IMG/VR virus record: IMGVR_UViG_3300042291_001557
Location: 36,257 to 100,256 of that record
Source: a virus
Strand: one strand, 5' to 3'
Length of the DNA: 64,000 nucleotides
A model generated the notes under the pieces. That model searched no databases. It worked only from the letters and a program-made list of their open reading frames with translations, and was not told the DNA's origin. Both the position numbers and the translations under genes were made by a program. Positions 3,930-21,145 of the stretch are shown in pieces. The first letter of the stretch is position 1; each line of letters begins with the position of its first letter.

Positions 3930-4698
3930 CTGTCAAATCTTTGCTTTGGGCTTCCGTCCATGTGAACTCGGTTTTTGGTTCCTCAAACACTTCGTGGTTA
4001 ATAGTATTTACTGGCGTGTCGTCAGTATTTTCCTCAAAGTCCAAACTCGTCGTGACAAAACAGCTAATTATCCACTTGTCCGAAGAATAAGGGACCAATC
4101 CCATGTGTGGGTGAGTCCAACTTGTAGGAAACAAAACAATTTTACCGATTTCCGCATCGACAGAACAATCATGAATTCTAAAACTTGTCCCCCCGCCATC
4201 GGTAACGGTATTTAGGTAGACGACGACAGCTAAAACTCTTGTGTGGTTTTTGCCGTTTTCGTCCGGCCTTGGATAGTCCCATGGTAAACCGTCGACATGC
4301 TCTCTATAGAAACCGTCATTTTTAAAGTACCTCTGAATTCTTAATCCAGTAATGTCCAGATTCGGGACAGACCAGAATTGTGGAAACATTTGGATGTAAT
4401 CATTTATGCACGACCATATGCGCGCATAGAGGTACTCACTGACTGCCGCATACTGGTGGTAATACTTGGTGGAATCAACCGTGTATATATTTGGGTCCAT
4501 CAACCCAGTGTCCATACAGCGTTTAATGCCTGTATTCACGCCACCTATAGTCGGCCCCTGAGTAAAAAAGCCAACGTTTAAAAAATCTTCCAAAAGGTTA
4601 GACACTAAAGATTCACATCTTTCTGCATCTAGAGCCTCCTTGTATTCGGCTATATATGAATATTTTCCAAGAGGAAAAGATGCTTTGGTTAATCCCAT
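3913..4698 (-). CDS. 2OG-Fe(II) oxygenase (prolyl-hydroxylase-like)
   Basis: EHVD (HxD), RVLAVVVYLN...GGGT.F, LFP..WTHPH...KW; start set at MGLTK to limit overlap. Confidence 0.85.
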   Translation of the reverse strand: MGLTKASFPLGKYSYIAEYKEALDAERCESLVSNLLEDFLNVGFFTQGPTIGGVNTGIKRCMDTGLMDPNIYTVDSTKYYHQYAAVSEYLYARIWSCINDYIQMFPQFWSVPNLDITGLRIQRYFKNDGFYREHVDGLPWDYPRPDENGKNHTRVLAVVVYLNTVTDGGGTSFRIHDCSVDAEIGKIVLFPTSWTHPHMGLVPYSSDKWIISCFVTTSLDFEENTDDTPVNTINHEVFEEPKTEFTWTEAQSKDLTDDSEQ

Positions 4699-5468
4699 TT
4701 GCGTTGTTCCTTTCTGTATTTGCCCCTGCGCCAACTAGGGAGAAGAGGAATTGGTCCACCAAAACCTCTTTCGTAAATAAGCTTAAATACGTTCTCGTCA
4801 CCAACGTGCATTTTTGAAACATTATCAGAACGTTTAAAAAAAGTCATTTGGGCAATAGGGGTCCCCTGAGGAATGTAGAACTCTTTGTCCGTCAACACGT
4901 TTAAAATTATATTGACCGTATGGTAATAATCCGTGTTTATTACTCCCGGGATTACGTCAAACTCGGGCCTTGGATTAAGAAGCGAACCAGTCAGAATGCT
5001 TGAATATCCTTTTGGCGTCATAAAGCAAAACGGATTCCCAAGCTTTATGTATTGCCCTTCGCCAACAGATGGGTTTCTTCTTTCCGTAAACGGACAGTCC
5101 CCTGTTTGTTTTCTTTCAAAATGCTGTATTGAGCCCATAATTTTTATGTTTTTTCTGTCGACATTAAACTCAGACTGAATGTCAATACCATTGGGATGAG
5201 GCCTTACTCGTAGGTCGGCCCACAATGGGATGGTCACACCGTTATGCATCAGGTCTTGTCCGCCAGGGCAATACCTATAACCGTCCTCTAGAGGGGTTTT
5301 GGTCGTCCAGTCGTCTTTGGAGAACTTGTTCATGTAGGGCATAATATCTTCATCGCCTAACAACCTATTGTCTTCTGCGGTTATTAATATTTCCCCTGGC
5401 TTCAACTTGGGTAACTGGTTTACCCTGGATACGCCATCTAGATAAACAACATTTTTAGAAGATTTCAT
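4689..5468 (-). CDS. DUF6065-like / dUTPase-like beta protein (module A)
   Basis: CPG..D...GVTIPLW.D, PGVINTDYYH, GTPIAQ..F.R; paralog of 14660..15454. Confidence 0.6.
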   Translation of the reverse strand: MKSSKNVVYLDGVSRVNQLPKLKPGEILITAEDNRLLGDEDIMPYMNKFSKDDWTTKTPLEDGYRYCPGGQDLMHNGVTIPLWADLRVRPHPNGIDIQSEFNVDRKNIKIMGSIQHFERKQTGDCPFTERRNPSVGEGQYIKLGNPFCFMTPKGYSSILTGSLLNPRPEFDVIPGVINTDYYHTVNIILNVLTDKEFYIPQGTPIAQMTFFKRSDNVSKMHVGDENVFKLIYERGFGGPIPLLPSWRRGKYRKEQRKWD

Positions 5469-6891
5469 GGTGGTATACGGTTTCAAGGTTCATGTTTGAT
5501 TGTCTTATTTCGGAGAGACTAGATGAAGCATAGTGCCGATTCTGATAATAATCAAGAGACCGAGAACATGATTCCTTTGTTATCAAACCCTGCCCTTGCG
5601 CCACATGCCAGAAGTGCGCTATCTGAAAAAGTTCATATCCACTCTGAGGGACGTCATTGGTGGAAGGGGGCCTTTCTGACCACAACTCTAAGAGCTCGGA
5701 AAGCAAAGGGGACCTTGGGGCACTTGCTGCGTCTTTCCAGAAACTGGTATCCCTTCTGTCCGATATGTAATGCATGCTCACCATGGCTATGAGGTTCTCG
5801 TGAAAACTTTCCATAATCGAATTGTACTTTCGGGAAAGAGACGTAGAGCCGGGTTTGAAAAATGGAATAAAACTAGATAGCGCCTTAGCCTGCTGAATTG
5901 CCGTAGAAATACTCGTAGCCTCAAGTGGCTCCATAAAAGAACTGCTCAACCCAATGGCAACACAGTTGTTTACCCACTGCTTACTGGTGTACCCAGGATT
6001 AAACTTTATAACTCTTGGCTTATCGAGAACATGACCAGTGACTTGTTCTATCTCTTTTATTGCTTGCTCTTCGTCTAGATGACCAGATGAGAAGACGTAA
6101 CCATTCCCACGTCTTTCCTGGGTAGGAATCTCCCACATCCAACCAGACGACATGGCGATAGCCCTGGTGTACTGCCTTATCAGACCGTTCGGGTCAGGTT
6201 TTGTCGGGAAAGGTATAGCCGTATCCGTAAGTAAATATCGTGATGCATCCACCCATTTGGCTTCGTCAAAATTCTTAATTAGGAACTTTGAAAACCCCGA
6301 AGCGTCTATCCAGAAATCAGAATAATATGTTTCTGAATTTGACGCAACCGACTGTATGTACCCGGTTTCATCAATCAAAGAAGAGACTAAGTCATCTATG
6401 AAAATCTTTATATTTTTCCTGGAACAAATTTTTTGAAGATAATGATTCAGCTTAAATGTGTCAAAATGATATTGATTTGTGTTTCTATGGATATGTTCTG
6501 ATTTGACTACTTTTGTTTCAATAAACCCAGGATGAGTTATTGTGTTGGTGAGCAGCTTGCCTTGCTCATGAATGTATTCATACAGAGGTATGTTTTCATT
6601 TTTAATAAAATAACCACTAATACTGTGAAAATAATCAGGAGTGTGATTGGTCCATTTCTCAAACCGAATACCAAGTTTGTGCGTAGCGGCAGTTTCCCTG
6701 ACCATCTCATCAATGTCTATTCCTGCTATTTCAACAAAGCTATGCCAATGCTCCGTACTACCTTCGCCAACTCCAATTATGCCAATAGTTTTTGACTCAA
6801 TAATTGAAACGTCAAGCAAGGGAAGCTTGCTTTTTAGAACTATCGCCGCAACAAGACCAGCAGTCCCTGCCCCTACAACCATAACCTTCAT
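5455..6891 (-). CDS. Flavin-dependent tryptophan-halogenase family protein (module A)
   Basis: GAGTAG FAD loop, GVGEGS, ATHKLGIRF (catalytic Lys position), WMWEIP, FMEPLEATS. Confidence 0.9.
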   Translation of the reverse strand: MKVMVVGAGTAGLVAAIVLKSKLPLLDVSIIESKTIGIIGVGEGSTEHWHSFVEIAGIDIDEMVRETAATHKLGIRFEKWTNHTPDYFHSISGYFIKNENIPLYEYIHEQGKLLTNTITHPGFIETKVVKSEHIHRNTNQYHFDTFKLNHYLQKICSRKNIKIFIDDLVSSLIDETGYIQSVASNSETYYSDFWIDASGFSKFLIKNFDEAKWVDASRYLLTDTAIPFPTKPDPNGLIRQYTRAIAMSSGWMWEIPTQERRGNGYVFSSGHLDEEQAIKEIEQVTGHVLDKPRVIKFNPGYTSKQWVNNCVAIGLSSSFMEPLEATSISTAIQQAKALSSFIPFFKPGSTSLSRKYNSIMESFHENLIAMVSMHYISDRRDTSFWKDAASAPRSPLLSELLELWSERPPSTNDVPQSGYELFQIAHFWHVAQGQGLITKESCSRSLDYYQNRHYASSSLSEIRQSNMNLETVYHHEIF

Positions 6892-6894
6892 GAG

Positions 6895-7521
6895 CTACCT
6901 AAGCCATGTTACGAAGGCATACTTGATGCCAAAATTGTTTTCCTCTACGGGGTGAGCTGTATGTCTATACAAATAGTTTGACGGAAACAAAACCATAGAA
7001 CCAGCAGAGGGAGAAACCTTTATGCCGAAATAATCAAACTCCAATTCGCCTCCGTTGAAGTCGTCATTAAACCACCCGACACAGCTAAGAATGCGACCAT
7101 TTTCCGAGCCGTAATCACAATGAGAACTGTATTCTCCACCGCTTGGGTATTTTAATACTCTGTATCCTTCGTCGGTAGACAGCTCAAGGCTGTACTTATC
7201 ACGATAATGATAAACCGCTGCGTCTATGTTCTTGAATATTTTTTTCCAGAGTACTGCTGCCGGTTTCATTCTTGGAATATTTTCTATTTTGTTAGCTTGC
7301 AGGGGGTTCAACTCCATTTGTACAGACATTCTGTACGATGAAATTTTACCGTTGTCAGTTTCTGAATTTTCCCACATCAAGTATGGCCAGTCTTCTTTTG
7401 ACTCAGATTCAATAAGTTCTATGATGTTTTCAGGTGAAAATATGTTTTTGTACATAATTACGCCAGGGGCCAACTCTACTATTTCTGAGCTTTCTATAAT
7501 TTCGTTAACAGACATCATCAT
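6895..7521 (-). CDS. 2OG-Fe(II) oxygenase (module A)
   Basis: LKY..GGEYSSHCD, GGELEF, LFPSNYLYRHTAHPV....KY. Confidence 0.88.
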   Translation of the reverse strand: MMMSVNEIIESSEIVELAPGVIMYKNIFSPENIIELIESESKEDWPYLMWENSETDNGKISSYRMSVQMELNPLQANKIENIPRMKPAAVLWKKIFKNIDAAVYHYRDKYSLELSTDEGYRVLKYPSGGEYSSHCDYGSENGRILSCVGWFNDDFNGGELEFDYFGIKVSPSAGSMVLFPSNYLYRHTAHPVEENNFGIKYAFVTWLR

Positions 7522-7948
7522 TTACCGTAAAATCAAAAGTGTGAATAATCTTATCTTTATACCAAACGCAAATAGCACAATCTCCCGGCGCACCAAAATT
7601 AAGCCCAAAATGAATAGAATGCCTATTTATTTTTTTTACATCTAGAAATCTGTGCCCATTTGGCTCTCCCACAATGTAGAGAAAAAGACTAATTTTTACA
7701 TCATCATCAAATACGAGAAATTCGTTTTTGTAATCAATCCGAATTAATTGATTTACCTTGACAGGAGAATGAGAAAACTTTATTGAATGCTCTGTTGGGA
7801 TAGAAATCGGACGAGGGGTGTCTCTGTCAAAAATCAAATCTTTGGTTCTCTCGTTGTCGCCGATAAGTATGGGGGCGACGTGGAGTCTAGATAATTCCTC
7901 TGCTGTGGGAAGCATTTCTTCTGTTGGACAAAAAATTACTGTATCCAT
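7505..7948 (-). CDS. Hypothetical protein (module A; positional counterpart of 17546..17962)
   Basis: Same position, similar size, weak similarity (A.EL, I..G.N..T.D, ID...EF..F..D). Confidence 0.6.
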   Translation of the reverse strand: MDTVIFCPTEEMLPTAEELSRLHVAPILIGDNERTKDLIFDRDTPRPISIPTEHSIKFSHSPVKVNQLIRIDYKNEFLVFDDDVKISLFLYIVGEPNGHRFLDVKKINRHSIHFGLNFGAPGDCAICVWYKDKIIHTFDFTVNDDVC

Positions 7949-7974
7949 AAATAGACACAATAGCAGTTAATTCT

Positions 7975-8223
7975 TTATTCCGCCTGAAGTCGAGCAAGGC
8001 TGGCCCGTGTAGTCTTTATTCCTACAACCAACATTCGGAAATGAGTTGAATACATATAAGACTCGCCGTCTTCAGGAACTTCAAAAGTATCCATGTCTAC
8101 GGTGAGAGGGTCTATCCCTGACTGTATGCAAGTTGTGAAAAAATTAGAGTACGCGGTCTCTAGCGCTTTGGTAAGGAGATTTACTGTTTCTTCTGTCGTT
8201 ATTTCGTCTCTTAGTTCTGGCAT
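7975..8223 (-). CDS. Small helical protein (module A; counterpart of 17959..18186), possible fibre chaperone
   Basis: LE..Y......GIDP.T.D motif shared with 17959..18186; SD AGAGGA upstream. Confidence 0.6.
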   Translation of the reverse strand: MPELRDEITTEETVNLLTKALETAYSNFFTTCIQSGIDPLTVDMDTFEVPEDGESYMYSTHFRMLVVGIKTTRASLARLQAE

Positions 8224-8232: not shown

Positions 8233-10362
8233 TTAAGCGTTAATTATTATTTTTGTACTAGAAGACAAGGATTGAGTAAGCCCCCATGAATCAGTAACAA
8301 CAATTATACCGCCTTCTAGGCCGGTAGAACCAGCGTTACCCATGGTCCCCGCTAGACCATTGGTGCCAGCATTGGGTGCTCCATTGGTTCCGGGGTTCCC
8401 AGGGTTGCCTGCACCACCAACCGTTCCTGCGTTACCGGCAGCTCCAGGATTTCCTGCTGCGCCTCCGTGTCCAGTTCCGTTATTCCCATGATTACCTGCT
8501 ACGCCGGCGTTGCCGGCAGTTCCATGGTTCCCTGCTGTTCCTGCTGCGCCGTTATGCCCATGACCATTTGTACCAGAATTACCGGCTGCGCCACCATAAC
8601 TGGTCGCAACAGCATTCTGCCCGTAGTGGGTGTTATGGTTATGCCCTGCACCGTGTCCGTTGAATTCATTATGTCCTAAACCTATGAAAAAGTGGTTGAC
8701 GTTTGCTGGGTTTGCGCCACGAGGCCATGTTCTGTTTGCGGGTGCACCAGTATAGTGAAAAGCATGTTCGGTCGAGTTTCTCCATGAATGTCTAGGAAAA
8801 TGTGCACTGTTTGATTCGTTAGCAGGGCGACCACCGGAACCACCAAATGTTCTCATATGACTATAACCTGAGACATGGAACGCATGGGCGTTGGAAGCAG
8901 CATTGGGGTTTCCTGCCTGCGAGACATACTGGTAATAAGTGTCATTTACTCCCGCATTGCCAGCTGCACCTGCAGTGGCCCCAGTTCCGTTAGCGGCCCC
9001 CGTTCCTGCTGTTCCATTTGTTCCTGCGTTGGCTACTCCAGGGTTTGCTCCGCCTGCGGTGGCACCGCTTCCGCCGTGGCCTCCAGTTCCTACGTTTCCG
9101 GGGTTTCCTGCATTGCCTGGGACGAGAGTTCCCACAACTCCGGCCCCACCGGACGTAGCACCAGTCCCTGCAATCCCAGGATTACCTGACGCACCTGCAG
9201 TTCCATGAGAACCAACCCCGCCAGGTTGTCCAACATTAACAACAGAGCCAGAGCCAGAAATATATTTAGCCACAATCAAAACAACGGGTCCTCCTCTTCC
9301 TCCCGTGCCACTTACTCCAGGGTTTCCTGCGTTGCCTGCGGCTCCAACAGTTCCAGCGTTGCCCGCTAAACCTGCCGCACCAAAATGTCCTGCGTTGGGC
9401 GCACCACTGTTTCCTGGGTTACCTGCATTGCCTGCGTTTCCTGCCGTACCGGCATTTCCTGCTGCACCCGCGTGTCCAGTTCCGCCATGTCCTGTTCCGT
9501 TGGTTCCTGGATTGCCATGGTTTCCTGCAGTGCCTGCGTTCCCTGCTGCACCATTGTTGCCGTGGTTTCCGGCGTGCCCATAACCATAAAGACCATAAGA
9601 ATTGTGTGTGTTGCCGTGGTTCGAACCAGACGGAATGTGTATTCCACCAGCAGTAGCTCCCGTTCCTGCCGCTCCTGGGTTGGCCCCACCAGCACCTCCT
9701 GCGGTAGCTCCACTTCCTCCGTGCCCACCAGTACCGTTACTGCCACCTGTTCCTGGGTTTCCTGCATTTGCTACTCCAGCTCCTCCAGCACCACCAAGGT
9801 TTGCTCCAGTTCCAGCAATTCCAGGATTGCCTCCCGTGCCAGGATTTCCTGCAACCCCTGGAACTAGGGTTCCTGGATTTCCTAGCGTGCCACTGGTTGC
9901 ACCACTTCCATCTGCACCCTTGTCGCCACCAGAAAGCACACGAATCGAACCAGCATTATCTACAAAATAACCACGAATTGATTTTTCCAAATCATTCAGT
10001 GTTGCCAGGTCGATTGGATTAGCTGAAGTCTGACTCAAGCTGTAAGTAACAATAGAAGCAGCCCCACCAGCCACTGTTCCTGACGGGATTAAGGACGTAT
10101 GCGAAAGAGTGGCTCCGATGGTTCCGTTGTTGGTTAAGGTCCCTTTAACAAAGACTCGAAAGCCGTTTGTGATTACAGTGCAACCGCTGTTGACCGTTAG
10201 GTTTTCGTAGTACATGTCTCTGGACAAAACAGTTGGAGTTCCAGTGTTTGAAACAATTACAGTTCCGTCTGTCCCTTGTCCATACACAGAGTCGTTTCCA
10301 AGTCTCTGTGTGTACTCTTTAGATTCCGTACCAGGTCTAAACCTGACAACTCCAATTCCCAT
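8233..10362 (-). CDS. Gly-rich (GXX repeat) virion protein with His/aromatic-rich loops (module A)
   Basis: N-terminal QRLGND.VYGQGTDG...DMYY.NLTVNSG...TNGFRVFVK.TLT.NG.IG shared with 18195..19805; long GNA/GNP/GTA tracts flank non-repetitive inserts. Confidence 0.75.
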   Translation of the reverse strand: MGIGVVRFRPGTESKEYTQRLGNDSVYGQGTDGTVIVSNTGTPTVLSRDMYYENLTVNSGCTVITNGFRVFVKGTLTNNGTIGATLSHTSLIPSGTVAGGAASIVTYSLSQTSANPIDLATLNDLEKSIRGYFVDNAGSIRVLSGGDKGADGSGATSGTLGNPGTLVPGVAGNPGTGGNPGIAGTGANLGGAGGAGVANAGNPGTGGSNGTGGHGGSGATAGGAGGANPGAAGTGATAGGIHIPSGSNHGNTHNSYGLYGYGHAGNHGNNGAAGNAGTAGNHGNPGTNGTGHGGTGHAGAAGNAGTAGNAGNAGNPGNSGAPNAGHFGAAGLAGNAGTVGAAGNAGNPGVSGTGGRGGPVVLIVAKYISGSGSVVNVGQPGGVGSHGTAGASGNPGIAGTGATSGGAGVVGTLVPGNAGNPGNVGTGGHGGSGATAGGANPGVANAGTNGTAGTGAANGTGATAGAAGNAGVNDTYYQYVSQAGNPNAASNAHAFHVSGYSHMRTFGGSGGRPANESNSAHFPRHSWRNSTEHAFHYTGAPANRTWPRGANPANVNHFFIGLGHNEFNGHGAGHNHNTHYGQNAVATSYGGAAGNSGTNGHGHNGAAGTAGNHGTAGNAGVAGNHGNNGTGHGGAAGNPGAAGNAGTVGGAGNPGNPGTNGAPNAGTNGLAGTMGNAGSTGLEGGIIVVTDSWGLTQSLSSSTKIIINA

Positions 10363-10364: not shown

Positions 10365-11099
10365 TTATACCAACTGCATGTAGTTATAAGTACCAGTATT
10401 CGCTCCGGTTACATCTGTAGAGACATTGCTCGGCAAGGAAGAACCGCTAGAAATAACAAGAATTACTCCGCCGCCGCCAGGAGAGGTTGCTGGTGCCGCA
10501 ATTTTAGCATTCACGGATACTGCTGTAGAAACAATGTAGCGAGCAGCGATTATTACTACTCCTCCGCCTGCCTGCCCTGTTCCGCCTGCTCCACCGCGAA
10601 GAAAAGTTGGTCCACCAGACGCTGTAATCGAATATCCGCGAATTGCTTGAATTGGCTGTTTGTAGTACTCAACCCCACCCATGGCGGCAGTTGGTGGCGT
10701 AGCGGTGTAAGTAGCCAAAGCGTTCCCGCCGAGACTATGGGTTACTGAAGTAGCAGCGGCTCCGCCTTGCTCTATGGAGCCTGCAGTCGAAAACCCAGTC
10801 GTGTAACCGATTACTGAAGCCTCGCCAAGACTTAGCTGTCCCTTTACCAATATCCTGTAACCAGCCGGGTCTAGACGAATAGACGTATCGATAGATAATG
10901 AATCAAGAAACAAGTCTCTGGTCATTGTAAAAACAGAAGAAGAATAAGTTAACCCAAGAGAAGCAGAGTACGTTCCTCCACTCCCAGACGTTGTTGACAG
11001 AACTGCAGCACCATCGGCCCCTGTTCCGTAAATGGAATCAGGAGCGTCAATGAAAGCCGAGAAGGCCGTCAACACTGGATATCTTGATACTCCGGCCAT
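10365..11099 (-). CDS. Gly-rich virion structural protein (module A)
   Basis: MAGVSRYP.L.AF..FIDA.DS.YG.GADG, LRGGAGG.GQ.GGG.VI.AARYI; close paralog of 19807..20514. Confidence 0.75.
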   Translation of the reverse strand: MAGVSRYPVLTAFSAFIDAPDSIYGTGADGAAVLSTTSGSGGTYSASLGLTYSSSVFTMTRDLFLDSLSIDTSIRLDPAGYRILVKGQLSLGEASVIGYTTGFSTAGSIEQGGAAATSVTHSLGGNALATYTATPPTAAMGGVEYYKQPIQAIRGYSITASGGPTFLRGGAGGTGQAGGGVVIIAARYIVSTAVSVNAKIAAPATSPGGGGVILVISSGSSLPSNVSTDVTGANTGTYNYMQLV

Positions 11100-11101: not shown

Positions 11102-11437
11102 CTAAAGGGTGTAGCCGTTTACCGTTACCGTAATAGCGGCATTCTCACTGACAAAATAAATAATGTCGTCTAGGGCTAGAGAAGTGTTCGTGTTGTAAGT
11201 AATCGTCTCTTTAGGGGAAACGCTCATTTGTGACAAGATTCTTTGCGCAGCAACATCGCTGGATACGGTATTAGCGGCGACACCTACTGTTATCCAGTAT
11301 GCGGTACTTGCGCTTGTGTTGCAGATGATTATCTGCTTTACTACTCCGGCAGCCGTGGCTGTATAGGCACCTGTAGCCCCAGAACTAAAAGTTGTAACGG
11401 TGGCCTTGGGACCGAACCGATAAGGAACTACTGACAT
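11102..11437 (-). CDS. Small beta-rich virion protein (module A)
   Basis: YT....VVKQII.CNT motif shared with 20514..20888 and 23892..24197. Confidence 0.7.
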   Translation of the reverse strand: MSVVPYRFGPKATVTTFSSGATGAYTATAAGVVKQIIICNTSASTAYWITVGVAANTVSSDVAAQRILSQMSVSPKETITYNTNTSLALDDIIYFVSENAAITVTVNGYTL

Positions 11438-11677
11438 TTAGATGACCTCCATGAGAAATATTACTTCAGTATCGTCTGCACGCACGTTAGTCGGGCCACT
11501 TGCTCCGGGGACTCCAGACGAACCTACAGGACCAGTTGGGCCTGAAGGACCTTCAGGGCCCTGGGTCCCACCAATCCCAACATTGAGTGCCCACTTGCCG
11601 TCCGTGTACGACCAGGTTTTGCCGTCAACTGTAAAGTTGTCACCGGGAGCAGGGGAGTTGGGAAAATCGATAGCCAT
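11438..11677 (-). CDS. Short IDFPNSP-domain protein with collagen-like triplets (module A)
   Basis: [18 protein letters not shown]....W followed by GXY triplets; start 11677 supported by TATAAT 7 nt upstream. Confidence 0.7.
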   Translation of the reverse strand: MAIDFPNSPAPGDNFTVDGKTWSYTDGKWALNVGIGGTQGPEGPSGPTGPVGSSGVPGASGPTNVRADDTEVIFLMEVI

Positions 11678-11704
11678 GCCTGCAATTATACCCTGAACTG
11701 ATTG
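11678..11704 (-). promoter_or_regulatory. Leaderless promoter CAATCAGTTCAGGGTATAAT-N7-ATG (copy 1)
   Basis: TATAAT at 11690-11685, 7 nt before ATG; same upstream sequence at 13062-13088. Confidence 0.6.
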
Positions 11705-11768
11705 AGGGGAACCATAAGAAACAAGGTGGCAATATAATGCCAATTGAAGAAATCAAAAACTATGGTCG

Positions 11769-12035: not shown

Positions 12036-12044
12036 AATATCTCC

Positions 12045-13061
12045 CTAGACAACATACTCAATAATGACAGCGCCATTTGAACCCATGTTCGCAAGGGTGG
12101 TGCCTGTGTACCCATTAGCCATGCCCACGGTAAACGAGTAGACAGTTGACGGAACGGTAGTTACTTGAAAAACTTCCGTTACTCCATCCTGCCCACGACT
12201 CGCTTCTATTCTTCCCGAAACCCTAGTATAAACAAGGTCACCACTATCCTGCTCTCTAGTCTCCACAGCAACAGCAGTTGCGACACCACCAATTCCTCCA
12301 GAGCCAGGGTATCTATTTTCTGCGTCAAAATTGGATGTATTGTTACTTGAACTGCCACTAAGTTTAGTTCCGTAAATAATATCACCAGTAATAGTCTCGG
12401 TTTTAATCGGTCCCTGTTTGCCCCCAAGAGCGGTATATGTAGTCCCACCAGCAACAAAGGTTGTTGAGCCACCATCTTCGTAGCCCATCATGGAAGTCGC
12501 GGATACAGTAGCGTAGTTGGTTACTGTAAGTGTGGCAAATCCTTGCCCACCGCCTGCACCAATAAGTGTCAGTTTTATTTGCGTGACACCAGCAGGACAA
12601 GTCCATGTTCCGCTACCGTTTGTTGTGTACTTTGTAACATAGATTTTGGGGTCCACAGCACTGACTCCTGGGACTCCGCTAACCCCAGGCACGCCACTAA
12701 CCCCTTGCGGACCAGTTGCACCGGTCGGTCCTCCCGCAGGACCCGTGGCTCCCGTTAAGCCAGTCGGACCAGTCGGACCTGTCAGACCAGTGGGCCCAGC
12801 TATTCCTGTTGGTCCAGTAATTCCTGTTGGTCCAGCAATTCCTGTTGGCCCTGTTGCCCCAGTCAAACCTGTTGGTCCAGTTGCACCAGTAGGCCCAGTG
12901 GGACCCCCTGCAGGCCCTGTTGCTCCTGTTGGACCTGTCGGGCCAACAACGCCCATAGTGCTTACAAAAAGAGCCCATTTTCCGTCAGTGAATGTCCACG
13001 TTTTATTGTTTGTCGTAAACGATGCGCCCGGCGCAGGTGAGTTGGGGAAATCGATAGCCAT
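12045..13061 (-). CDS. Collagen-like tail fibre with C-terminal glycine-rich domain
   Basis: IDFPNSP N-terminus, about 30 GXY triplets (GPT/GAT/GVS), then [20 protein letters not shown]...YSFTVG...[10 protein letters not shown]. Confidence 0.8.
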
Positions 13062-13088: not shown

Positions 13089-13094
13089 TGAGGC

Positions 13095-13537: not shown

Positions 13538-14656
13538 TTAGTTATAGGTCATATAAGAAAGAAGTGCTTTTTTTGCTGCTATTTCCTCGGCACCTGTTGG
13601 GCGCACTGTTGGAATAAGTAAGTTTTCGGACTTCTCAATAAACTCAAAAATTTCTTCTGCCGTCGTATTGCTGCTGTCTATCTTAAAATCCAAACAAGTT
13701 TTATATATAACGCCTTCTATTTTAGAATTCTCTACCGCTAAAACGTTTGAATCAATGGTTATATCCTGTGGGTAATTTGCAACGAGGGAATTCAGGGAAA
13801 TATAGCGCAGTTTTTTTCTAAGCCAGTCAAGAAATAGTGGGCTTATGTCTATCTGTTCAATAAAGTCTTGCCTCGGGTTATCTGTTTCTAGGAGGTATCT
13901 GTAAACCGGCATGTTTTCTTGATACTCGTTAATCTCGTCAATAACTTCTGGGGGCATTTTTATCGCCTCAAGATAACTCTTTGCATCAAGCGCTATTTCA
14001 TCCGTAACGTTAAAAGGTTCTTCGGCCAAAGAAGCCCACTCGATTACTAGTTTCATGCAGCCCATAAAAGTCTTTGACATGCCAACCACGGCAGGCCAGT
14101 CTCTATAGGAAGTTCCGATATCGGAAACCCGCATGTAGCTGACAGTAGATGTTCCAGCAACACTCAGCAAGCTTGCAACCCGTTTAATTGTGTTGTTGTT
14201 TATTTTATTTAGGTCAGCTATGAATGGTTTTATCCCATCTCCCACCGGATACGCCATCGCCATGAATAAATGTGTTTCGCACCTGTTCTTGTAGTCCCAA
14301 TACGCATTGACAAATTTTGACTCTACTTGCTGCTTCATTGACACTGAATTATAGAAAGAAAACGTATCACTTTCAAGATGACTGGACATAAATGCATATT
14401 CATAAAAATGCTCGTAAGGCATCCACTGGACGATTGATTCGCCCTCTTCGTTAACGAGAACATAATTGTAGTCAGTCTTTCCCAGGTCGAAATTACGAAA
14501 AGCAATTATCTGGTAGTTATCTGCAATAAAGATGTCATATTCCGTATATTCAACATCTCCGTTTGGGTGTCTTATGTAAAGTTTGAAGTCGTCCAAGGAT
14601 TCATGAACGTAGTAGCAACCATAAAGAGATGGGTCTATTTGAGACGTGTTATTCAC
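13538..14656 (-). CDS. Hypothetical protein (follows module B)
   Basis: 372-aa ORF with AAGGAAG SD, operon-like spacing; no motif recognised. Confidence 0.7.
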   Translation of the reverse strand: MNNTSQIDPSLYGCYYVHESLDDFKLYIRHPNGDVEYTEYDIFIADNYQIIAFRNFDLGKTDYNYVLVNEEGESIVQWMPYEHFYEYAFMSSHLESDTFSFYNSVSMKQQVESKFVNAYWDYKNRCETHLFMAMAYPVGDGIKPFIADLNKINNNTIKRVASLLSVAGTSTVSYMRVSDIGTSYRDWPAVVGMSKTFMGCMKLVIEWASLAEEPFNVTDEIALDAKSYLEAIKMPPEVIDEINEYQENMPVYRYLLETDNPRQDFIEQIDISPLFLDWLRKKLRYISLNSLVANYPQDITIDSNVLAVENSKIEGVIYKTCLDFKIDSSNTTAEEIFEFIEKSENLLIPTVRPTGAEEIAAKKALLSYMTYN

Positions 14657-14659: not shown

Positions 14660-15454
14660 TTACTTCCTTTTGAGTATTTTTTTAATTATACCTTTTTGTT
14701 CAGACTGCTTATCTAAAGCATTATCAACAATTACCCTATTGCGACGATAAGGACCAGCAGTCCCATCGCTTGGGGCAACGTGCCCTGTCCCAAACCCTGT
14801 TGTAGCAACGTATTTAAAGTAAGACTCGTCGTTGAAGATTATTTCCCCAAAGTCGGAGTTGCGCTTAAACGGAACTACCTGACACATCGGTGTTCCGTAT
14901 TTTATGGAAAACGGCCTATCACCAATAGGGTTAATAACCATGTTTGCTAAGTGGTAGAAATCCGTATGAACGATTGACGGAACGAGCGTGTAGTCCTCGT
15001 TTGGTTCCCAGTACGGTGGGAGAATCATCGACGACCAGCCTGGGGCTGTTTCAAAGCGCCACGGATTAATTATCTTTGGGTATTGGCCCGTTGCTACTTT
15101 TCTGACAGCAGTCATTGGGCATTCACCGGTGGAGTGAGCAGAAAATCCTGATATTGAATTTATCCCAGCTTGTGGTGCAAAATCGTCCCCCGCCGTTTCC
15201 CATGTCTCGCCATTTGGGTCTAGACGGAATCTAAAATTTGTCCACATAGGAATAGTGACGCCAGCAGTAAGAAAATCTATTGTTCCAGCGCATTTGCGAA
15301 TGGAGCCCTGATGCTTACCAATTTTCTTAAACCACATAGGAGGATTCTGTACTGTGTTAACAAATGGAGGCATCTCCATCAATCTGTTATCCATCGGTGT
15401 GAATCTTATTTGTCCAGGTTTTACTGGCGGCATCTTGGTCATTATTGGTTCCAT
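14660..15454 (-). CDS. DUF6065-like / dUTPase-like beta protein (module B)
   Basis: P.WFK....SIRKCAG..D...GVTIPMW, PSIVHTDFYH, GTPMCQVVPFKR. Confidence 0.6.
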   Translation of the reverse strand: MEPIMTKMPPVKPGQIRFTPMDNRLMEMPPFVNTVQNPPMWFKKIGKHQGSIRKCAGTIDFLTAGVTIPMWTNFRFRLDPNGETWETAGDDFAPQAGINSISGFSAHSTGECPMTAVRKVATGQYPKIINPWRFETAPGWSSMILPPYWEPNEDYTLVPSIVHTDFYHLANMVINPIGDRPFSIKYGTPMCQVVPFKRNSDFGEIIFNDESYFKYVATTGFGTGHVAPSDGTAGPYRRNRVIVDNALDKQSEQKGIIKKILKRK

Positions 15455-16950
15455 TCTTTGTCAATCAACACAATTTCCCGCAAAGCAGTAGCGTGGTCGA
15501 CTTGTTCGCCACTATTCCGATTTGCTTTGTATTCTGCAATTTTTTTCTCAACGCTTTGCCGTATCCCAAGCCTATTGAGGGCAGTGGTGGCCGCATCTGG
15601 ATTGATGGCGTTTTGACCTTGAGCAACATGCCACAAGTGTGCCGACAAAAACATCTCGCCGTTTAATGCACTAAAATCAAATCTGGTTGGTGGACGCTCC
15701 GCCCATAACTCAATCATCTCCTGCAATTCTTCATTGAGTGGCGTTACTGACATTTCCCGCCAAAATGGAGTGTCCTGCCTATCCGAATAATAATGGAGAC
15801 GAACCATCGTAAGAATATTGCGCATCATCAGCTTCATGCTGGCGTTAAAGTGTTTCTGAGATGCTGTGTGCCCAGGTTGATACGAAGCAAGATAGGGGAC
15901 AATTTGTTTTACTTGCTGAATTGTTGAACCTATGCTAGAGGCCTCTAATGGCTCCACAAAAGAAGAAGCCAGCCCGATTGCACAACAGTTCTTTACCCAT
16001 GTGTTCTTTAGATAGCCCGCGTCAAAATTAATAACACGATGGGCTTCAATCTTGTAGCCGGACATCTCTTCGGCTTCACGTACCGCTTCTTCTTCGGTTA
16101 TAAATTTAGACGAAAATACGTATCCGTTTCCACGCCGTTCTTGAGTGGGGAGTTCCCAGAGCCACCCGGAAGAGGCAGCACGAGCACGTGTGTAGGGACG
16201 AATTCTTCCGTTGGGGTCAGATTCCGTAGGAAACGCAATTGCCGTATCGCACAAAAGATGGTCACTGAAAGAAGACCAATCATCTGCCCCAAGTTTTTTC
16301 ATCAATATTCTGCTAAAGCCACTAGCGTCAAACCAAAAGTCTGACGCAATGGTTTCATTTGATTTGGTTACTACGGATAGTATATTTCCGTTTTCGCTAT
16401 CAAGATTAATAGAATCTACTTCTGCCTCAATAAACTCAATCTGTCTCTTGAACGCCAGAGTAATTAGATAATTATTTAGCTTATGCGTATCAAAATGGTA
16501 TTGATTTGTAGACCGGTGCATTCCCGCTTTGCTGATTTTGTCTTTTACCAATGCAACGTTCGTAATCTGTGGGGTCAAAAGCTTCCCCTCTTCCAGATAT
16601 TGCATATAAGTTGCGTGTGCTCCAAAAGCATAAATATCATCTACGTCACCTACGCTATGAAAATAGTCAGGATTTTTTGTTGTCCAGTTTTCAAATCTAA
16701 TTCCGTACTTATGCGTACCAGCTGTCTCGACAAGCATTTCTTCAATAGGGATGTCACATAGGTCAGCAAACTGACGCCAGTGTTCCGTGCTTCCCTCCCC
16801 CACGCCAATAATCCCAATTTTTGAGGACGATACAACTTTTATTCCCGCTATGGGAAAGGCTTTGCGCAAAATCAAAGAAGCAAGTAGTCCTGCTGTTCCA
16901 GACCCGACGATGGTAATAATAAATGGTTTTTTTTCTTGTTTGTAATCCAT
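15442..16950 (-). CDS. Flavin-dependent tryptophan-halogenase family protein (module B)
   Basis: GSGTAG, GVGEGS, GTHKYGIRFENW, WLWELP, FVEPLEASS; TAAGAT 6 nt before ATG suggests an internal leaderless promoter. Confidence 0.9.
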   Translation of the reverse strand: MDYKQEKKPFIITIVGSGTAGLLASLILRKAFPIAGIKVVSSSKIGIIGVGEGSTEHWRQFADLCDIPIEEMLVETAGTHKYGIRFENWTTKNPDYFHSVGDVDDIYAFGAHATYMQYLEEGKLLTPQITNVALVKDKISKAGMHRSTNQYHFDTHKLNNYLITLAFKRQIEFIEAEVDSINLDSENGNILSVVTKSNETIASDFWFDASGFSRILMKKLGADDWSSFSDHLLCDTAIAFPTESDPNGRIRPYTRARAASSGWLWELPTQERRGNGYVFSSKFITEEEAVREAEEMSGYKIEAHRVINFDAGYLKNTWVKNCCAIGLASSFVEPLEASSIGSTIQQVKQIVPYLASYQPGHTASQKHFNASMKLMMRNILTMVRLHYYSDRQDTPFWREMSVTPLNEELQEMIELWAERPPTRFDFSALNGEMFLSAHLWHVAQGQNAINPDAATTALNRLGIRQSVEKKIAEYKANRNSGEQVDHATALREIVLIDKEWNQ

Positions 16951-16967: not shown

Positions 16968-17549
16968 CTAGCAAAACCATGTCACTAGAGAGTGCTTAAC
17001 GCCTTCAAGGACGGGATGGGCAACATGCAAGTAGGGGAAATTTGAAGGAAACATAAGAACCGAACCTGTTTTCAGCTTGACGGTCACATCAAAGGTGGGA
17101 AACTCTAATTCTCCGCCACTTTCGGCTTCCCCAAGGGATGCGACAATACTAAAAACACGCCTATTGTCTCTCCAGTGGTCATAGTGAGCACGATATTCTC
17201 CTCCTTGGTAGTATTTGAGGATTGCAAATTCTTCAGGGATGGCGTCCTCTATCATGAATTCTTGACGGTAATCTTCGGCGACCGCCATGCAGGGTAAAAA
17301 AATGTTTTTTTGGTAGAAATCAGATAATTCAGTTTTTTCATACGGAGGGAGCAAAGACGTAAGAACACAATTAATAGAAGTTCTAGTATCGGTCGTTGAC
17401 CCTGCTCCGGTTTTACCGTAGTCCCATTCGAGGCCGGACCACTCGTTCGCAGTTTCTTCTTCTACTTTAGCTAAGAACTCAATCGCTACTGATTCAGGGA
17501 ACACGTCTTCATACAGGGATACGCACGGTGCTATTTTTGTATTTTTCAT
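16968..17549 (-). CDS. 2OG-Fe(II) oxygenase (module B)
   Basis: LKY..GGEYRAHYD, GGELEF, MFPSNFPYLHVAHPV..G.K.S.VTW. Confidence 0.88.
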   Translation of the reverse strand: MKNTKIAPCVSLYEDVFPESVAIEFLAKVEEETANEWSGLEWDYGKTGAGSTTDTRTSINCVLTSLLPPYEKTELSDFYQKNIFLPCMAVAEDYRQEFMIEDAIPEEFAILKYYQGGEYRAHYDHWRDNRRVFSIVASLGEAESGGELEFPTFDVTVKLKTGSVLMFPSNFPYLHVAHPVLEGVKHSLVTWFC

Positions 17550-17962
17550 ATAACCCTAAATTCCCCAGAACAATAGTCTTCTGTTTCAGAAACAGTAATT
17601 TTATACTTCCAATTTCCCAGACTAACGTATCTTGAACGAAAACGCAAGCTATGAACCTGACGAACGGAAGGTTTTGTAATTACCGTTTCCCCGGTTTCTG
17701 AAGTAGCAATCAATCGAGCATCGCGTCCAAAAAAAACAAATTCGTCTGTCAGGTCAATGCAGAAAACGTATCCAGACTCAACGGTAGGCGGTATTTCTAC
17801 CACTTTTTTGTATGGGACACTAACGATGCAAATATCTGTGTATTTGTTGTCTTCCCCAACCTGTATGGACAGCATTGTTTTTTTTGCCAACTCTATGGCC
17901 TTTAAGGGGATTTCATTGTTTTCCAGAAGTAGGGATACTGGAACATGAATAAATCTTTTCAC
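17546..17962 (-). CDS. Hypothetical protein (module B)
   Basis: Overlapping start/stop with neighbours; counterpart of 7505..7948. Confidence 0.6.
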   Translation of the reverse strand: MKRFIHVPVSLLLENNEIPLKAIELAKKTMLSIQVGEDNKYTDICIVSVPYKKVVEIPPTVESGYVFCIDLTDEFVFFGRDARLIATSETGETVITKPSVRQVHSLRFRSRYVSLGNWKYKITVSETEDYCSGEFRVI

Positions 17963-18186
17963 GACAGTTCGGTGATTTTTACTTTTACCCGATTGAGAGC
18001 ATTTACTAACTCTTGAATACGAATGTACTCACCAGTGAAATTTGTTCCAGTAAAGCCAACTTCTTCATCAAAAGTTTCTGGGTCAACATTCAAACGAACA
18101 AGAAGCGTATACAGCTCTTTTTCTATTCCGGATTTTGAACTTTGACAAAGTTCAATTTTTTCTGCTTGCGTTAAGTTGAATTCCAT
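17959..18186 (-). CDS. Small helical protein (module B)
   Basis: AGGAG SD; IE..LY......VDPETFD similar to 7975..8223. Confidence 0.6.
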   Translation of the reverse strand: MEFNLTQAEKIELCQSSKSGIEKELYTLLVRLNVDPETFDEEVGFTGTNFTGEYIRIQELVNALNRVKVKITELS

Positions 18187-18194
18187 GATTTCTC

Positions 18195-19805
18195 CTACGA
18201 ATTAATTAATACGTACGCTGCACCCGCGGAGGCAACATAGTTGTCTGAGTCGACCGTTAGTCCTGCGCGAGTATCGTAAGTGATTGTGTTTGCTATTGAG
18301 TCCGTGACGATAAGGATAGCACCGCCGCCACCGGCCCCACCACGTTTTCCATTTGGACCAGCAATCGCTGGCCCTCCTGCTCCTCCTGCCCCTCCTGCTC
18401 CGCCTGGATATACTGTTGGCGCAACATGTGTTGAAACGCTATTGGGGTGATGAGAATGTCTTGCGGTAGTCCCTGAGGGTCCTGCATAAAAAACGGCCCC
18501 AACGCCAACTCCGTTATTGTGATGAGGGTGGTTATTGCCAAAGTGAATATGGTTGTCACTCCCTCCGGCATTACCTATCCAATCCATGTGGTGATTATGA
18601 CCCGTGGTCGCGCCGTGTGAATGGCCACCATGGCTGTTTGGTTTTTGATGATAGTGAGGAAATGGATAATGATGAGTTATCTGAAAATAAGCGTGCCACC
18701 AGTGCGGTTCCCAGTGGTGTGCTCCACCGTGGGGTCCATCGTTGTGGGGGGAATGGTGATGGCCATTGTGGTGGTGATGAGGGGTCGCGTGGTGATGCGG
18801 GGTTCCTCTATGAAAGTGGTGAGGGGTCGAGTGGGCACCATGAGCCCCATGCTTGGCGTCGGTAAGGGCATGAACATGCTCTTGAACGTTTTCGTGTTGC
18901 TGGACGTGCTGCCGAACGCCATGCTTATGCATGTTTGAGTGATTAGTGTAATAGTGATGATGGTCAGGGTTATGGGTTGCGGGATGCGCAACGTTAACGT
19001 TCGGATTGGGGTGTGAGTAAGCAGGGGCGGGTGTTCCCGTACCACCCGCAGTACCCGCAGTACCTGCGCCACCCGCCGTTCCTGCGACACCCGACATTCC
19101 CAGTGAAATTATTTTCCCTGTTCCTACAACCGTTTTAGCTACTACACAAACAACTGCTCCACCTGCTCCGCCAATTCCACTGACTCCGGAAGTTCCAGGC
19201 GTCCCAGCATTTCCAGTTCCACCAGTCCCCCCTCTGCCTCCGACTGCACCAACAGTGTGTGCGTTTGGAGCGTACGAACCAGCCGCTCCTGCTGTGCCTG
19301 GACTTCCTGGAGACGGTGCGGCTCCTGCGGTTGGAGCACCAGCAGTACCTCCAACTCCTCCACCTATGTTTTGAAAACCTGACGGGGTTGGAACTAAGCC
19401 ACCAGCCATCGCATCGATTGACTTAAATAAATACAGCGGGAGCGGATTGCCGCCTGGGTTTGTTCCGCCTCCGCCCACTCCACCAGCGTTGTAGGTAATA
19501 GGAACGGTGTTTGTTCCCACAGTAGTTTTAGTTGTTACTGCGGTCGGCTCTCCAACTACACCTGCAGTAACAGAACCGGAACCAATATAGCCATTTAGCG
19601 TTAGTGTGTTTTTAACAAAAACTCTGTAGCCGTTTGTCTTTAACAAAACTCCCGAGTTTACAGTGAGGTTGTTGTAGTACATATCGCTCGTTATGGAAGT
19701 ATCTGACGAAACAGTAACGTTTCCATCAGTACCCTGACCATAGATGTCGTCGTTACCTAGTCTTTGCGAAAAGCTTTGAGTCCTAAACTTCTCTATGCCA
19801 GCCAT
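18195..19805 (-). CDS. Gly-rich virion protein with an approx. 200-aa His-rich insert (module B)
   Basis: Paralogous N-terminus to 8233..10362; about 50 His in the insert at roughly 18420-19020. Confidence 0.75.
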   Translation of the reverse strand: MAGIEKFRTQSFSQRLGNDDIYGQGTDGNVTVSSDTSITSDMYYNNLTVNSGVLLKTNGYRVFVKNTLTLNGYIGSGSVTAGVVGEPTAVTTKTTVGTNTVPITYNAGGVGGGGTNPGGNPLPLYLFKSIDAMAGGLVPTPSGFQNIGGGVGGTAGAPTAGAAPSPGSPGTAGAAGSYAPNAHTVGAVGGRGGTGGTGNAGTPGTSGVSGIGGAGGAVVCVVAKTVVGTGKIISLGMSGVAGTAGGAGTAGTAGGTGTPAPAYSHPNPNVNVAHPATHNPDHHHYYTNHSNMHKHGVRQHVQQHENVQEHVHALTDAKHGAHGAHSTPHHFHRGTPHHHATPHHHHNGHHHSPHNDGPHGGAHHWEPHWWHAYFQITHHYPFPHYHQKPNSHGGHSHGATTGHNHHMDWIGNAGGSDNHIHFGNNHPHHNNGVGVGAVFYAGPSGTTARHSHHPNSVSTHVAPTVYPGGAGGAGGAGGPAIAGPNGKRGGAGGGGAILIVTDSIANTITYDTRAGLTVDSDNYVASAGAAYVLINS

Positions 19806-19806
19806 T

Positions 19807-20514
19807 TTAAACCAACTGCATGTAATTTACAGTGCCAGGATTCTGTCCAGTTACATCTGTTGTGACGTTTGCAGGAAGACCGGCTGCCGACGAAACCACA
19901 AGGACAACTCCCCCGCCAGCAGGGGCAGTTGCTTTTGCTGAAATCTCGGCCGTGCCGCTTAGTGGACCCGAGATATACCTTGCGGCGACTATTACTATTC
20001 CGCCACCTTTTTGTCCAGCGCCACCGGCTCCACCACGAAGATATGTTGGGCCACCCGAAGCAGTAAGAGAATATCCTAGAACCGCATTTCTTGGTTGCTG
20101 GAAATACTTAGCTCCTCCCAAGGAGTCTAATGGGGCAGTTGCCGTATAGCCAGTTGCTGAACCACCAAGAGAATGAGCAACAGCCAAGGAAGCTACCTGT
20201 CCCTGGAGTATTGAGCCACTGTCCGAATACCCAGTTATGTATCCAATACGGGAAGATGTTCCTAGTGTGAGTATGTTTTTGACAAACAAACGATATCCGT
20301 TTGGTTTTAAATGAATGTTGTCATTAATCGTTAGGTTGAACAGATACAAGTCCGCAACCATGGAATAAACGTTTGATGCCGGAATCATCCCCAAAACAGT
20401 GGATGAGCCATTAAGGGTCGCTGAACCATCAGCCCCAGAACCGTAAACAGAATCGGCAGCATCAATGAATTGCCCAAAAGCATTCAAGGCTGGATAGCGG
20501 GCCACGCCAGCCAT
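19807..20514 (-). CDS. Gly-rich virion structural protein (module B)
   Basis: Close paralog of 10365..11099, identical C-terminal NYMQLV. Confidence 0.75.
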   Translation of the reverse strand: MAGVARYPALNAFGQFIDAADSVYGSGADGSATLNGSSTVLGMIPASNVYSMVADLYLFNLTINDNIHLKPNGYRLFVKNILTLGTSSRIGYITGYSDSGSILQGQVASLAVAHSLGGSATGYTATAPLDSLGGAKYFQQPRNAVLGYSLTASGGPTYLRGGAGGAGQKGGGIVIVAARYISGPLSGTAEISAKATAPAGGGVVLVVSSAAGLPANVTTDVTGQNPGTVNYMQLV

Positions 20515-20888
20515 TATGTCTCTTCTATGCCGACGATTGTGATGTTTACCGAAGTGGCAACACTGGCAAACGCAGTCAGCTGGTCACTGTTTGTAGCATT
20601 TGCTGTCGAACCGTTATTGTTTAAAACCAACGAACAATTGAAAGCCATCGTCTCATTTGCTGCAATTGCAACAGAACTAAGAATGTCATGCGTTGCTACT
20701 TCTGCTACACCTAGCGGTTTGAGTCGCACGGTAACGGTCTTTGCTGCGGACGTAGTATTAGTGAGAATGATTTGCTTTACGACGGTCGTTGTGTCGAGCG
20801 GAACTGTGTAGTAGACAACAGACGTTGCCGACAGTTGCTGTGGCGACGGAGCCCCACTAACATAAAGACGTTTTTGAACTATGGCCAT
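20514..20888 (-). CDS. Small beta-rich virion protein (module B)
   Basis: YTVP..TTTVVKQIILTNT motif. Confidence 0.7.
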   Translation of the reverse strand: MAIVQKRLYVSGAPSPQQLSATSVVYYTVPLDTTTVVKQIILTNTTSAAKTVTVRLKPLGVAEVATHDILSSVAIAANETMAFNCSLVLNNNGSTANATNSDQLTAFASVATSVNITIVGIEET

Positions 20889-21145
20889 TAGAAAACCTCC
20901 ATGGATAAGCGGATGTAGTTATCCCTAACAAGAGAGCTAGGTACATACTGACTTCCGTCATAAGCAACTACCTGGTCAACCGCGGCACCGGCAGTATCTA
21001 TTTGAGCAAGGGTAATAGAACCGTTAACCACGGCTGTTGGAATAGTTATAACCGTCCATGCGTATCCGGTATATTTCCACGTTTTACCAGAGTCTGTAAA
21101 AGTGTCTCCCGTAGTGGGCGAGTTGGGAAAGTCAATAAGAGGCAT
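20888..21145 (-). CDS. Short IDFPNSP-domain protein (module B)
   Basis: MPLIDFPNSP..GD.FT..GKTW.Y....W; ends MEVF versus MEVI in the module A copy. Confidence 0.7.
   Translation of the reverse strand: MPLIDFPNSPTTGDTFTDSGKTWKYTGYAWTVITIPTAVVNGSITLAQIDTAGAAVDQVVAYDGSQYVPSSLVRDNYIRLSMEVF

Follow-up and report, generated by a model that had tools for sequence, protein, structure and literature searches.

The window analysed here, 64,000 nucleotides from the right-hand end of a 100-kb IMG/VR virus record (IMGVR_UViG_3300042291_001557, completeness ~63%), carries two nine-gene cassettes on its minus strand, A (11677-4689) and B (21145-14660), in which a pair of Gly-rich proteins, one of them with a His-rich insert, is encoded together with a 2-oxoglutarate-Fe(II) (2OG) oxygenase, a flavin-dependent halogenase and a dUTPase-fold protein with two conserved cysteines. 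The window is best explained as carrying, in one genome, two long-diverged versions of a mobile fibre-tip cassette of uncultured lake phages. The cassette is a genuine, mobile and conserved unit in uncultured phage contigs, and the candidate function that we favour, with slightly less than even confidence, is the post-translational tailoring of its own Gly-rich appendage or fibre proteins. Homology, intact catalytic residues, constant linkage and co-inheritance are shown, whereas co-transcription, virion location, substrate and chemistry are proposed.

The nine-gene order, which a preliminary description of the DNA had reported to occur twice, was confirmed, as all nine positions of A and B are homologous, seven pairs being recovered by BLASTP (29-62% identity) and the two weakest by profile-profile alignment. 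The starts at 11677 and 21145 are internal ATGs, giving MAIDFPNSP in A1 (11438..11677), an IDFPNSP mini-protein with a short collagen-like tract, and MPLIDFPNSP in B1 (20888..21145, ~85 aa), where a fibre N-terminal attachment-type motif forms a stand-alone open reading frame (ORF); the two are 62% identical over 29 aa, and B1 homologues of 92 aa occupy the same place in the related loci L013, L018 and L094. Position 2 encodes a small protein of 111 aa in A (A2, 11102..11437) and 124 aa in B (B2, 20514..20888; phrog_20100 and phrog_1276), which are 31% identical, and this gene lies before the B3 gene in most loci. A5 (7975..8223, 82 aa) has no BLASTP match to B5 (17959..18186, 75 aa), a member of a G-x-DP-x-T-F-D family found in 84 loci, but is joined to it by hhalign (probability 95%, E 2e-8), while A6 (7505..7960, ~147 aa) and B6 (17546..17962, 138 aa) give a BLASTP E of 0.005 and an hhalign probability of 99.5% (E 3e-22). 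No recognisable family emerged from Pfam, PHROG and ESM Atlas searches for positions 2, 5 and 6 or for a 372-aa protein encoded next to cassette B, and the ESM Atlas offered no usable match for the 372-aa protein or B6. The remaining pairs are 57% (position 3, full length), 29% (position 4), 34% (position 7), 47% (position 8) and 33% (position 9) identical. Since modules A and B have almost no DNA similarity, the copies are old, and, as the same description held, they are diverged but intact, with the catalytic residues kept in both enzyme sets. In both copies the halogenase gene overlaps the following position-9 gene (by 13 nt at the end of B8), which suggests translational coupling.

On sequence grounds, A8 (5455..6891) and B8 (15442..16950) are flavin-dependent halogenases with intact catalytic residues. 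They match PF04820 with 332 bits (9e-99) and 338 bits (1e-100), respectively, against a cut-off of 21; residues K81 and E336, which align to K79 and E357 of RebH, are invariant in 17 sequences, and the flavin adenine dinucleotide (FAD) motif GxGxxG is present along with the WxWxIP motif, which reads GWMWEIP in A8 and GWLWELP in B8. They share the FAD motif, the Lys, WxWxIP and the Glu of FxEPLE with RebH, PrnA, BrvH and VirX1 (PDB 2e4g, 2apg, 6frl and 6qgm; E 1e-42 to 1e-54), whereas the alignment ends at residue 416 of 502 in RebH and, unlike these four, halogenases of the window type are paired with a dUTPase-fold protein. The oxygenases A7 (6895..7521) and B7 (16968..17549) score 51.8 and 44.5 bits with PF13640 (cut-off 27), and H122, D124 and H175 are invariant, and K185 nearly so, in 17 sequences. 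Their best solved relatives are all peptidyl-prolyl 4-hydroxylases (P4Hs), from Bacillus anthracis, chlorovirus PBCV-1, Chlamydomonas and human (C-P4H). The enzymes of B. anthracis (5hv0, 3itq; E 8e-11) and PBCV-1 (5c5t; E 5e-8) have the same HxD...H triad, intact in A7, and 2-oxoglutarate Lys and act on collagen-like or Pro-rich repeats, although the alignment is limited to the catalytic core. A7 and B7 are prolyl-4-hydroxylase-like oxygenases, for which peptidyl-proline hydroxylation is predicted from the nearest solved relatives, and the earlier suggestion that the 2OG enzyme is directed at proteins agrees with the protein substrates of these relatives.

Position 9 (A9, 4689..5486; B9, 14660..15454, phrog_7084) is predicted to have a dUTPase-like fold. 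Its AlphaFold2 (AF2) model (predicted local distance difference test score 79) shows a dUTPase-type barrel with insertions, with which Foldseek retrieved many dUTPases (E 1e-4, target template-modelling score 0.58-0.74), and C55 and C112 are invariant in the family alignment. A9 matches the dUTPase family PF00692 (28.9 bits, 1e-6) and B9 falls below Pfam reporting, with 6 of the 24 family members matched in total. Only the region of motifs 3-4 aligns with the dUTPase motifs (E 8.5e-4), and the TD-x-Y, G-W-S and GFG segments resemble, by eye, motifs 3, 2 and 5, respectively; the protein is ~10% identical to true dUTPases and has large insertions. The label 'DUF6065-like' given to this protein was borne out only weakly, because DUF6065 (PF19541) weakly matched 10 of the 24 members (best E 0.0024) and neither copy in the window at E <=0.1, while the fold is dUTPase-like. 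A protein 90% identical to B9 (P0026) is encoded on another contig.

Positions 3 and 4 encode Gly-rich proteins with a shared N- and C-terminal scaffold, which in position 4 is interrupted by Gly-rich tracts and a hypervariable insert. A3 (10365..11099, 244 aa) and B3 (19807..20514, 235 aa), the constant partner of B4, are putative beta-helix proteins: the AF2 model of B3 is a beta-solenoid of moderate confidence, which gave generic beta-solenoid matches (bactofilin, adhesins, tailspike) with a middling Z of 7.6 in a wide VIA search and nothing better than E 0.4 with Foldseek. B4 (18195..19805, 536 aa) combines a B3-like scaffold with a 227-aa insert that contains 54 His (24%) and all four Trp of the protein. 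A4 (8233..10362, 709 aa), which is Gly/Asn-rich, contains 11 GNPG motifs together with His-bearing zones and shares a conserved aromatic/His domain with the related locus L045, and its His content is 7% over the 399-aa His-bearing zone, compared with 24% in the B4 insert. Each of the 66 non-redundant position-4 proteins has a localised His-rich insert, with a median His content of 20%, and 0-8 His outside it, and Pro-Gly is enriched 1.5 times in these proteins. With the Pfam family Collagen (PF01391), A4 scored 23.7 bits, below the cut-off of 27.2, and B4 gave no match. The two inserts had been said to differ completely, which is true of A4 and B4, whereas conserved islands remain among the inserts within each clade. 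As well, a weak match (E ~6e-4 in a small search) links the N-terminal domain of positions 3 and 4 to the N-terminus of gene 33 of HRTV-5 (L047:7606-7779), a gene that lies three genes from the baseplate J gene. From gene position, the beta-helix model and the fibre-type neighbours, we infer that positions 3 and 4 are virion (tail-fibre) proteins.

Linkage was examined in two sets of relatives, the best 80 of at least 549 IMG/VR relatives anchored on the halogenase (45-69% identity) and 41 IMG/VR loci anchored on position 3. With the position-3 anchor, every locus with enough downstream DNA has position 4, the 2OG gene, the halogenase and position 9. With the halogenase anchor, positions 3 and 4 were found in 68/68 loci with at least 5.5 kb of upstream DNA, a P4H-like gene in 64/68, and position 9 within 300 nt of the halogenase in 75/76. 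The genes stay together even where the arrangement is inverted (L115-L118), where position 6 or the 2OG gene has moved, where the 372-aa gene lies inserted between the 2OG gene and the halogenase, and where the flanks vary. Joint inheritance of the enzymes with the Gly/His protein is thus supported in more than 60 non-redundant relatives, with either anchor.

Several of these loci differ in layout. In L115-L118 (e.g., L115:8195-15404), position 6, the 2OG gene, position 9 and the halogenase lie on one strand, with the order of the last two swapped, and positions 4, 3 and 2 follow downstream on the other strand. The sole locus without position 9, L112 (1-4968), has the halogenase directly behind Gly-rich fibre-tip genes; upstream are PF21722-like genes of this kind, a tail-fibre-chaperone-like ORF and a 2OG-like ORF, and downstream are an endolysin-like and a terminase-like gene. 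Complete cassettes of 35-47% identity were also observed at L130:2180-8696 and L131:2413-8693, on two contigs, of 73 kb and 62 kb, that were assigned to the same marine 'Gammaproteobacteria' metagenome-assembled genome (MAG) and probably represent mis-binned viral DNA, either from one further phage with two cassettes or from two phages.

FastTree trees were built from 65 non-redundant cassettes, and the A and B enzymes fall into different, well-supported clades. The halogenase, position 9, the oxygenase and the position-4 scaffold of cassette A are each sister to those of L045 (support 99-100) in one clade, and the B copies fall in another clade with L008, L050-L052, L072 and L081. Forcing the A and B halogenases together costs 140 log-likelihood units, and a recent duplication within the genome was rejected by the approximately unbiased (AU) test (p 3e-51). 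Five near-complete relatives, four of them at least 96% complete and three of those with terminal repeats, have one halogenase each, and none of 79 loci has a second halogenase within 10 kb. The two old cassette types therefore came together either by ancient duplication followed by loss elsewhere or by acquisition through recombination. Accordingly, a better description than 'duplicated' is two co-resident, paralogous cassettes from different clades.

The Spearman correlation of patristic distances was highest between the halogenase and position 9 (0.90), followed by position 9 and the position-4 scaffold (0.82) and the halogenase and the position-4 scaffold (0.81), and these three have matching nearest neighbours across trees. 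Position 3, which evolves more slowly, gave 0.65 with the halogenase, 0.63 with position 9 and 0.71 with the position-4 scaffold, and, although its gene adjoins position 4, its tree places copy A away from L045. Because position 3 is less congruent in spite of this adjacency, position 4, the halogenase and position 9 seem to be co-inherited more tightly, slightly beyond what adjacency alone would give, although this evidence is indirect. The oxygenase reached only 0.54 with the halogenase, 0.48 with position 9, 0.36 with position 3 and 0.39 with the position-4 scaffold. The congruence proposed earlier as a check is thus found for the halogenase, together with position 9 and the position-4 scaffold, and is weak for the 2OG enzyme.

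The enzyme trio itself is already known from cyanophage Syn9, in which a neighbourhood of dioxygenases, Trp-halogenase homologues and a dUTPase-fold Cys protein has been described (Iyer, Abhiman, de Souza and Aravind 2010, PMC2938197). The Syn9/Syn10-type neighbourhood resembles the window cassettes in its three enzyme families, in the halogenase followed by the dUTPase-fold protein and in its co-directional arrangement with conserved Cys in the latter (C55 and C112 here). Syn9 gp43 matches position 9 (E 1e-7), gp41/42 match the halogenases (26% identity), and the halogenases lie directly behind the Gly-rich fibre-type genes of gp36, gp38 and gp39, with mildly His-rich tails in gp38 and gp39. 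However, Syn9 has two halogenases and ten oxygenases, while each window cassette has one halogenase and one or two oxygenases, is tied to a beta-helical pair with a 20%-His insert and is present as one of two. Judged by these similarities, the window cassettes are a compact, diverged version of the Syn9 neighbourhood, joined to a different protein family that is much richer in His. In the literature, we found no study that links these halogenases or oxygenases to fibre proteins or proposes fibre tailoring, and nothing on DUF6065 or on a phage halogenase with a histidine-rich protein.

Other systems share single features with the cassettes. In the biosynthesis of ribosomally synthesized and post-translationally modified peptides (RiPPs), flavin halogenases such as MibH and SrpI act on a ribosomal product encoded beside the halogenase gene, and here, too, a candidate ribosomal substrate is encoded beside the halogenase. 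However, the candidate substrates are 536 and 709 aa long, and no RiPP precursor, leader peptide, leader protease, exporter or recognition element was detected in either cassette by ORF, Pfam and PHROG scans, so that 'RiPP-like', as the system had been called, is an analogy only. The His-rich fibre tip of T4 gp37 binds metal at HxH iron sites. As in gp37, His is concentrated in the variable region of a fibre-type protein, but there is no sequence similarity, and a gp37-type HxH metal array was ruled out, as HxH spacing in the 66 inserts is enriched only 1.11 times over expectation. Finally, the Nereis jaw protein Nvjp-1 and its relatives are Gly/His-rich, Zn-binding proteins of a halogenated, cross-linked matrix (PMC13120676, citing Birkedal 2006 and Broomell 2008). 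The likeness of a Gly/His-rich structural protein tied to halogenation is a compositional analogy only, since homology is lacking and the halogenating enzyme of the worm is not a known flavin halogenase.

Both cassettes lie inside a co-directional minus-strand block of virion or fibre-type genes that runs from ~32.7 kb down to 2.1 kb (~30 kb), with ORFs that overlap or nearly abut. The gene directly upstream of the cassette encodes a 914-aa protein that is 45% identical to a virion structural protein of the T4-like cyanophages S-PM2 and S-RSM4, and several collagen-like or Gly-rich fibre proteins are encoded within the block. Scans for sigma-70-type promoters and terminators between 2 and 22 kb found fewer sites than in shuffled sequences, and the window has 4 copies of the T4-type late motif TATAAATA where 1.5 are expected, none of them inside the cassettes; because these scans do not exceed chance, co-transcription of the cassette genes is suggested by their tight co-directional packing alone. 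A third paralogue of the small position-2 protein is encoded at 23892-24197 (-), directly upstream of the 914-aa virion structural gene, and proteins of this type seem to stand before several large structural genes. The window's left edge has an open-ended plus-strand ORF (5-1930), opposite in direction to the block, whose product contains fibronectin type III repeats.

Directly behind B9 is the gene of the 372-aa protein (13538..14656, -), which behaves as an optional, roaming member of an extended cassette, as in ~30 loci it is found either between the 2OG gene and the halogenase, which is often the case, or after position 9. Between the cassettes, a collagen-like tail-fibre protein of 338 aa (12045..13061, -) combines an N-terminal IDFPNSP motif with GPT repeats and a C-terminal domain rich in Gly; it passes the PF01391 cut-off (1.5e-11) and matches tail-fibre PHROGs. 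Cassette A is followed by a downstream extension (2147..4734, -), which consists of a second 2OG oxygenase (3913-4734, PF13640), a glycosyltransferase-like protein (3243-3929) and a GT4 glycosyltransferase (2147-3217), all on the minus strand, with further matches to PF13692, PF00534, phrog_3408 and phrog_1574. The same trio of a 2OG gene and two glycosyltransferase genes follows the cassette in L045, and an extra 2OG gene does so in 34 loci.

As for the host, the 100-kb record (~63% complete) yielded no psbA gene, so a cyanobacterial host is not shown. A 9-kb contig binned in an Actinomycetota MAG (L129, RHAS01000028.1) carries a cassette 61-64% identical to cassette B, and a freshwater actinobacterium rather than a cyanobacterium may be the host. 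A DNA search with module B gave no match among cultured phages, and a scan of bacterial genomes with the dUTPase-fold profile found only three MAG contigs, all of phage-like DNA.

Under the favoured reading, that the cassette tailors its own Gly-rich appendage proteins, its genes would be expressed along with the late structural genes. The P4H-like enzyme would hydroxylate X-Pro-Gly-type prolines in the Gly-rich proteins of the cassette, and perhaps in neighbouring collagen-like fibres too, and the halogenase, with its dUTPase-fold partner, would halogenate electron-rich side chains in the His-rich insert. In cassette A, the further 2OG enzyme and the two glycosyltransferases may extend this decoration. 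Each enzyme set is proposed to be matched to its own position-4 protein, which could be why both full sets persist in one genome. A more specific form of this idea, which is possible but which we regard as doubtful, is that phages halogenate and hydroxylate a His-rich loop of a virion appendage and swap enzyme and substrate jointly as a host-range cassette, with two non-interchangeable sets in this genome and the dUTPase-fold Cys protein as a new halogenase partner that delivers the substrate or matches the enzyme to it.

A number of observations weigh against tailoring of the cassette's own proteins. Trp, which had been named as a substrate of this halogenase family, is absent from 21 of the 66 inserts and cannot therefore be the general, let alone the universal, target of halogenation, and the insert of L033 lacks both Trp and Tyr, so that a universal aromatic target would have to be His. 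To our knowledge, there is no flavin-dependent halogenase precedent for His. Halogenation directed generally at the insert would in most cases fall on Tyr or His, which are likelier than Trp. No flavin reductase gene was seen in the cassettes in Pfam scans. No B3 or B4 homologue was recovered from cultured phages by tblastn, for which reason no virion proteomics is applicable to positions 3 and 4. Given the tight gene linkage, congruent trees are expected whatever the function, and the 2OG tree, as shown above, is the weakly congruent one. Enzymes unlinked to the structural genes, which had been named as an argument against tailoring, do not occur in the 68 loci with enough upstream DNA among the best 80 halogenase relatives (45-69% identity), but the more distant enzymes of S-PM2, P-SSM2 and S-H38 (28-37% identity) have no fibre genes next to them. 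Distant position-9 homologues stand alone beside ribonucleotide reductase genes in the marine cyanophage S-RIM4 (L046:5917-6711) and in the haloarchaeal tailed virus HRTV-5 (L047:4827-5669), and the wider position-9 family may have a nucleotide-related role. In sum, the original tailoring interpretation keeps unit inheritance, a congruent halogenase and P4H relatives on its side, and loses the Trp target, the RiPP label and the congruence of the 2OG enzyme, with the distant unlinked halogenases against it as well.

The published reading of the Syn9 cluster as halogenated secondary metabolism (Iyer et al. 2010, PMC2938197) also counts against tailoring. Applied to the window, the products of the enzymes during infection would be small molecules or peptide-derived metabolites carrying halogen and hydroxyl groups, and the fibre genes would be mere neighbours in a recombination-prone region, which we consider rather unlikely. 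The unlinked halogenases would fit such a role, and VirX1 (PDB 6qgm), a cyanophage halogenase, reportedly iodinates varied small molecules; however, Pfam and PHROG scans detected no peptide synthetase, precursor or carrier-protein gene in the cassette, the solved relatives of the 2OG enzyme are protein prolyl hydroxylases, the linkage to Gly-rich genes held in 68/68 loci and survives rearrangement, and the enzymes co-diverge with the position-4 scaffold. It is likewise unlikely that the enzymes act on other proteins, either the flanking collagen-like fibres, which would be hydroxylated and then glycosylated, or host envelope proteins, with the insert serving as an unmodified metal-binding or adhesive loop. 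Many loci, like the window, have collagen-like fibre genes beside the cassette, collagen-like repeats are substrates of P4H relatives, glycosyltransferases lie behind cassette A and the His-rich tips of T4 gp37 bind metal, but collagen-like genes are not constant neighbours, as positions 3 and 4 are, the near-random HxH spacing gives no gp37-type array, and the tracking of the position-4 scaffold by the halogenase and the dUTPase-fold protein would be left unexplained.

An action of the halogenase and dUTPase-fold pair on nucleotides, by which a halogenated base would be made or halogen-damaged deoxynucleoside triphosphates cleared, is suggested by the fold, by the residues reminiscent of dUTPase motifs (TD-x-Y, GFG) and by the homologues beside ribonucleotide reductase genes in S-RIM4 and HRTV-5. 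We find it very improbable, because the genes are located in fibre operons away from replication genes, the similarity to true dUTPases is so low and broken by large insertions, and a clearing enzyme should not diverge to 33%, be kept twice or track a fibre scaffold. The two-cassette state, for its part, could be an assembly artefact that fused two related phages at the repeat-rich collagen-like gene, with one cassette in each real genome, as in the five near-complete relatives. Among the pieces listed, no single Logan contig crosses 11693-12898, and lake-metagenome contigs break in the collagen-like gene, in a region (11690-13270) where depth is 1.5 to 3 times that of the flanks in four samples and several variants with skipped repeat units occur; the raised depth and the variants point to strain-level repeat variation or to gene sharing among phages. 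However, contigs from A and from B agree in depth in all four lake metagenomes (~13/13, 62/63, 14/13 and 11/10.5) despite a roughly six-fold variation in absolute depth, which argues for one genome, small contigs tile the gap between the cassettes, and A and B are almost without DNA similarity able to mislead an assembler. A chimera is therefore improbable.

What the window itself contributes is a genome with two intact cognate sets that diverged long ago, so that cognate and non-cognate pairing is directly testable side by side, with one defined candidate substrate protein per enzyme set, whereas the literature found does not establish what phage halogenases and 2OG oxygenases naturally act on. 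Even if tailoring is wrong, the constant pairing of the halogenase with the dUTPase-fold protein still defines a two-component system of biochemical interest. If tailoring is true, enzymatic halogenation would join the known chemistry of virus particles, and these phages would be a source of peptide- or protein-directed halogenases for biocatalysis. In its more specific form, with enzyme and substrate swapped as a host-range cassette, the position-4 protein would be the first halogenated virus structural protein and would point to a natural substrate class for viral halogenases such as VirX1, and this genome would represent a natural experiment in enzyme-substrate cognacy.

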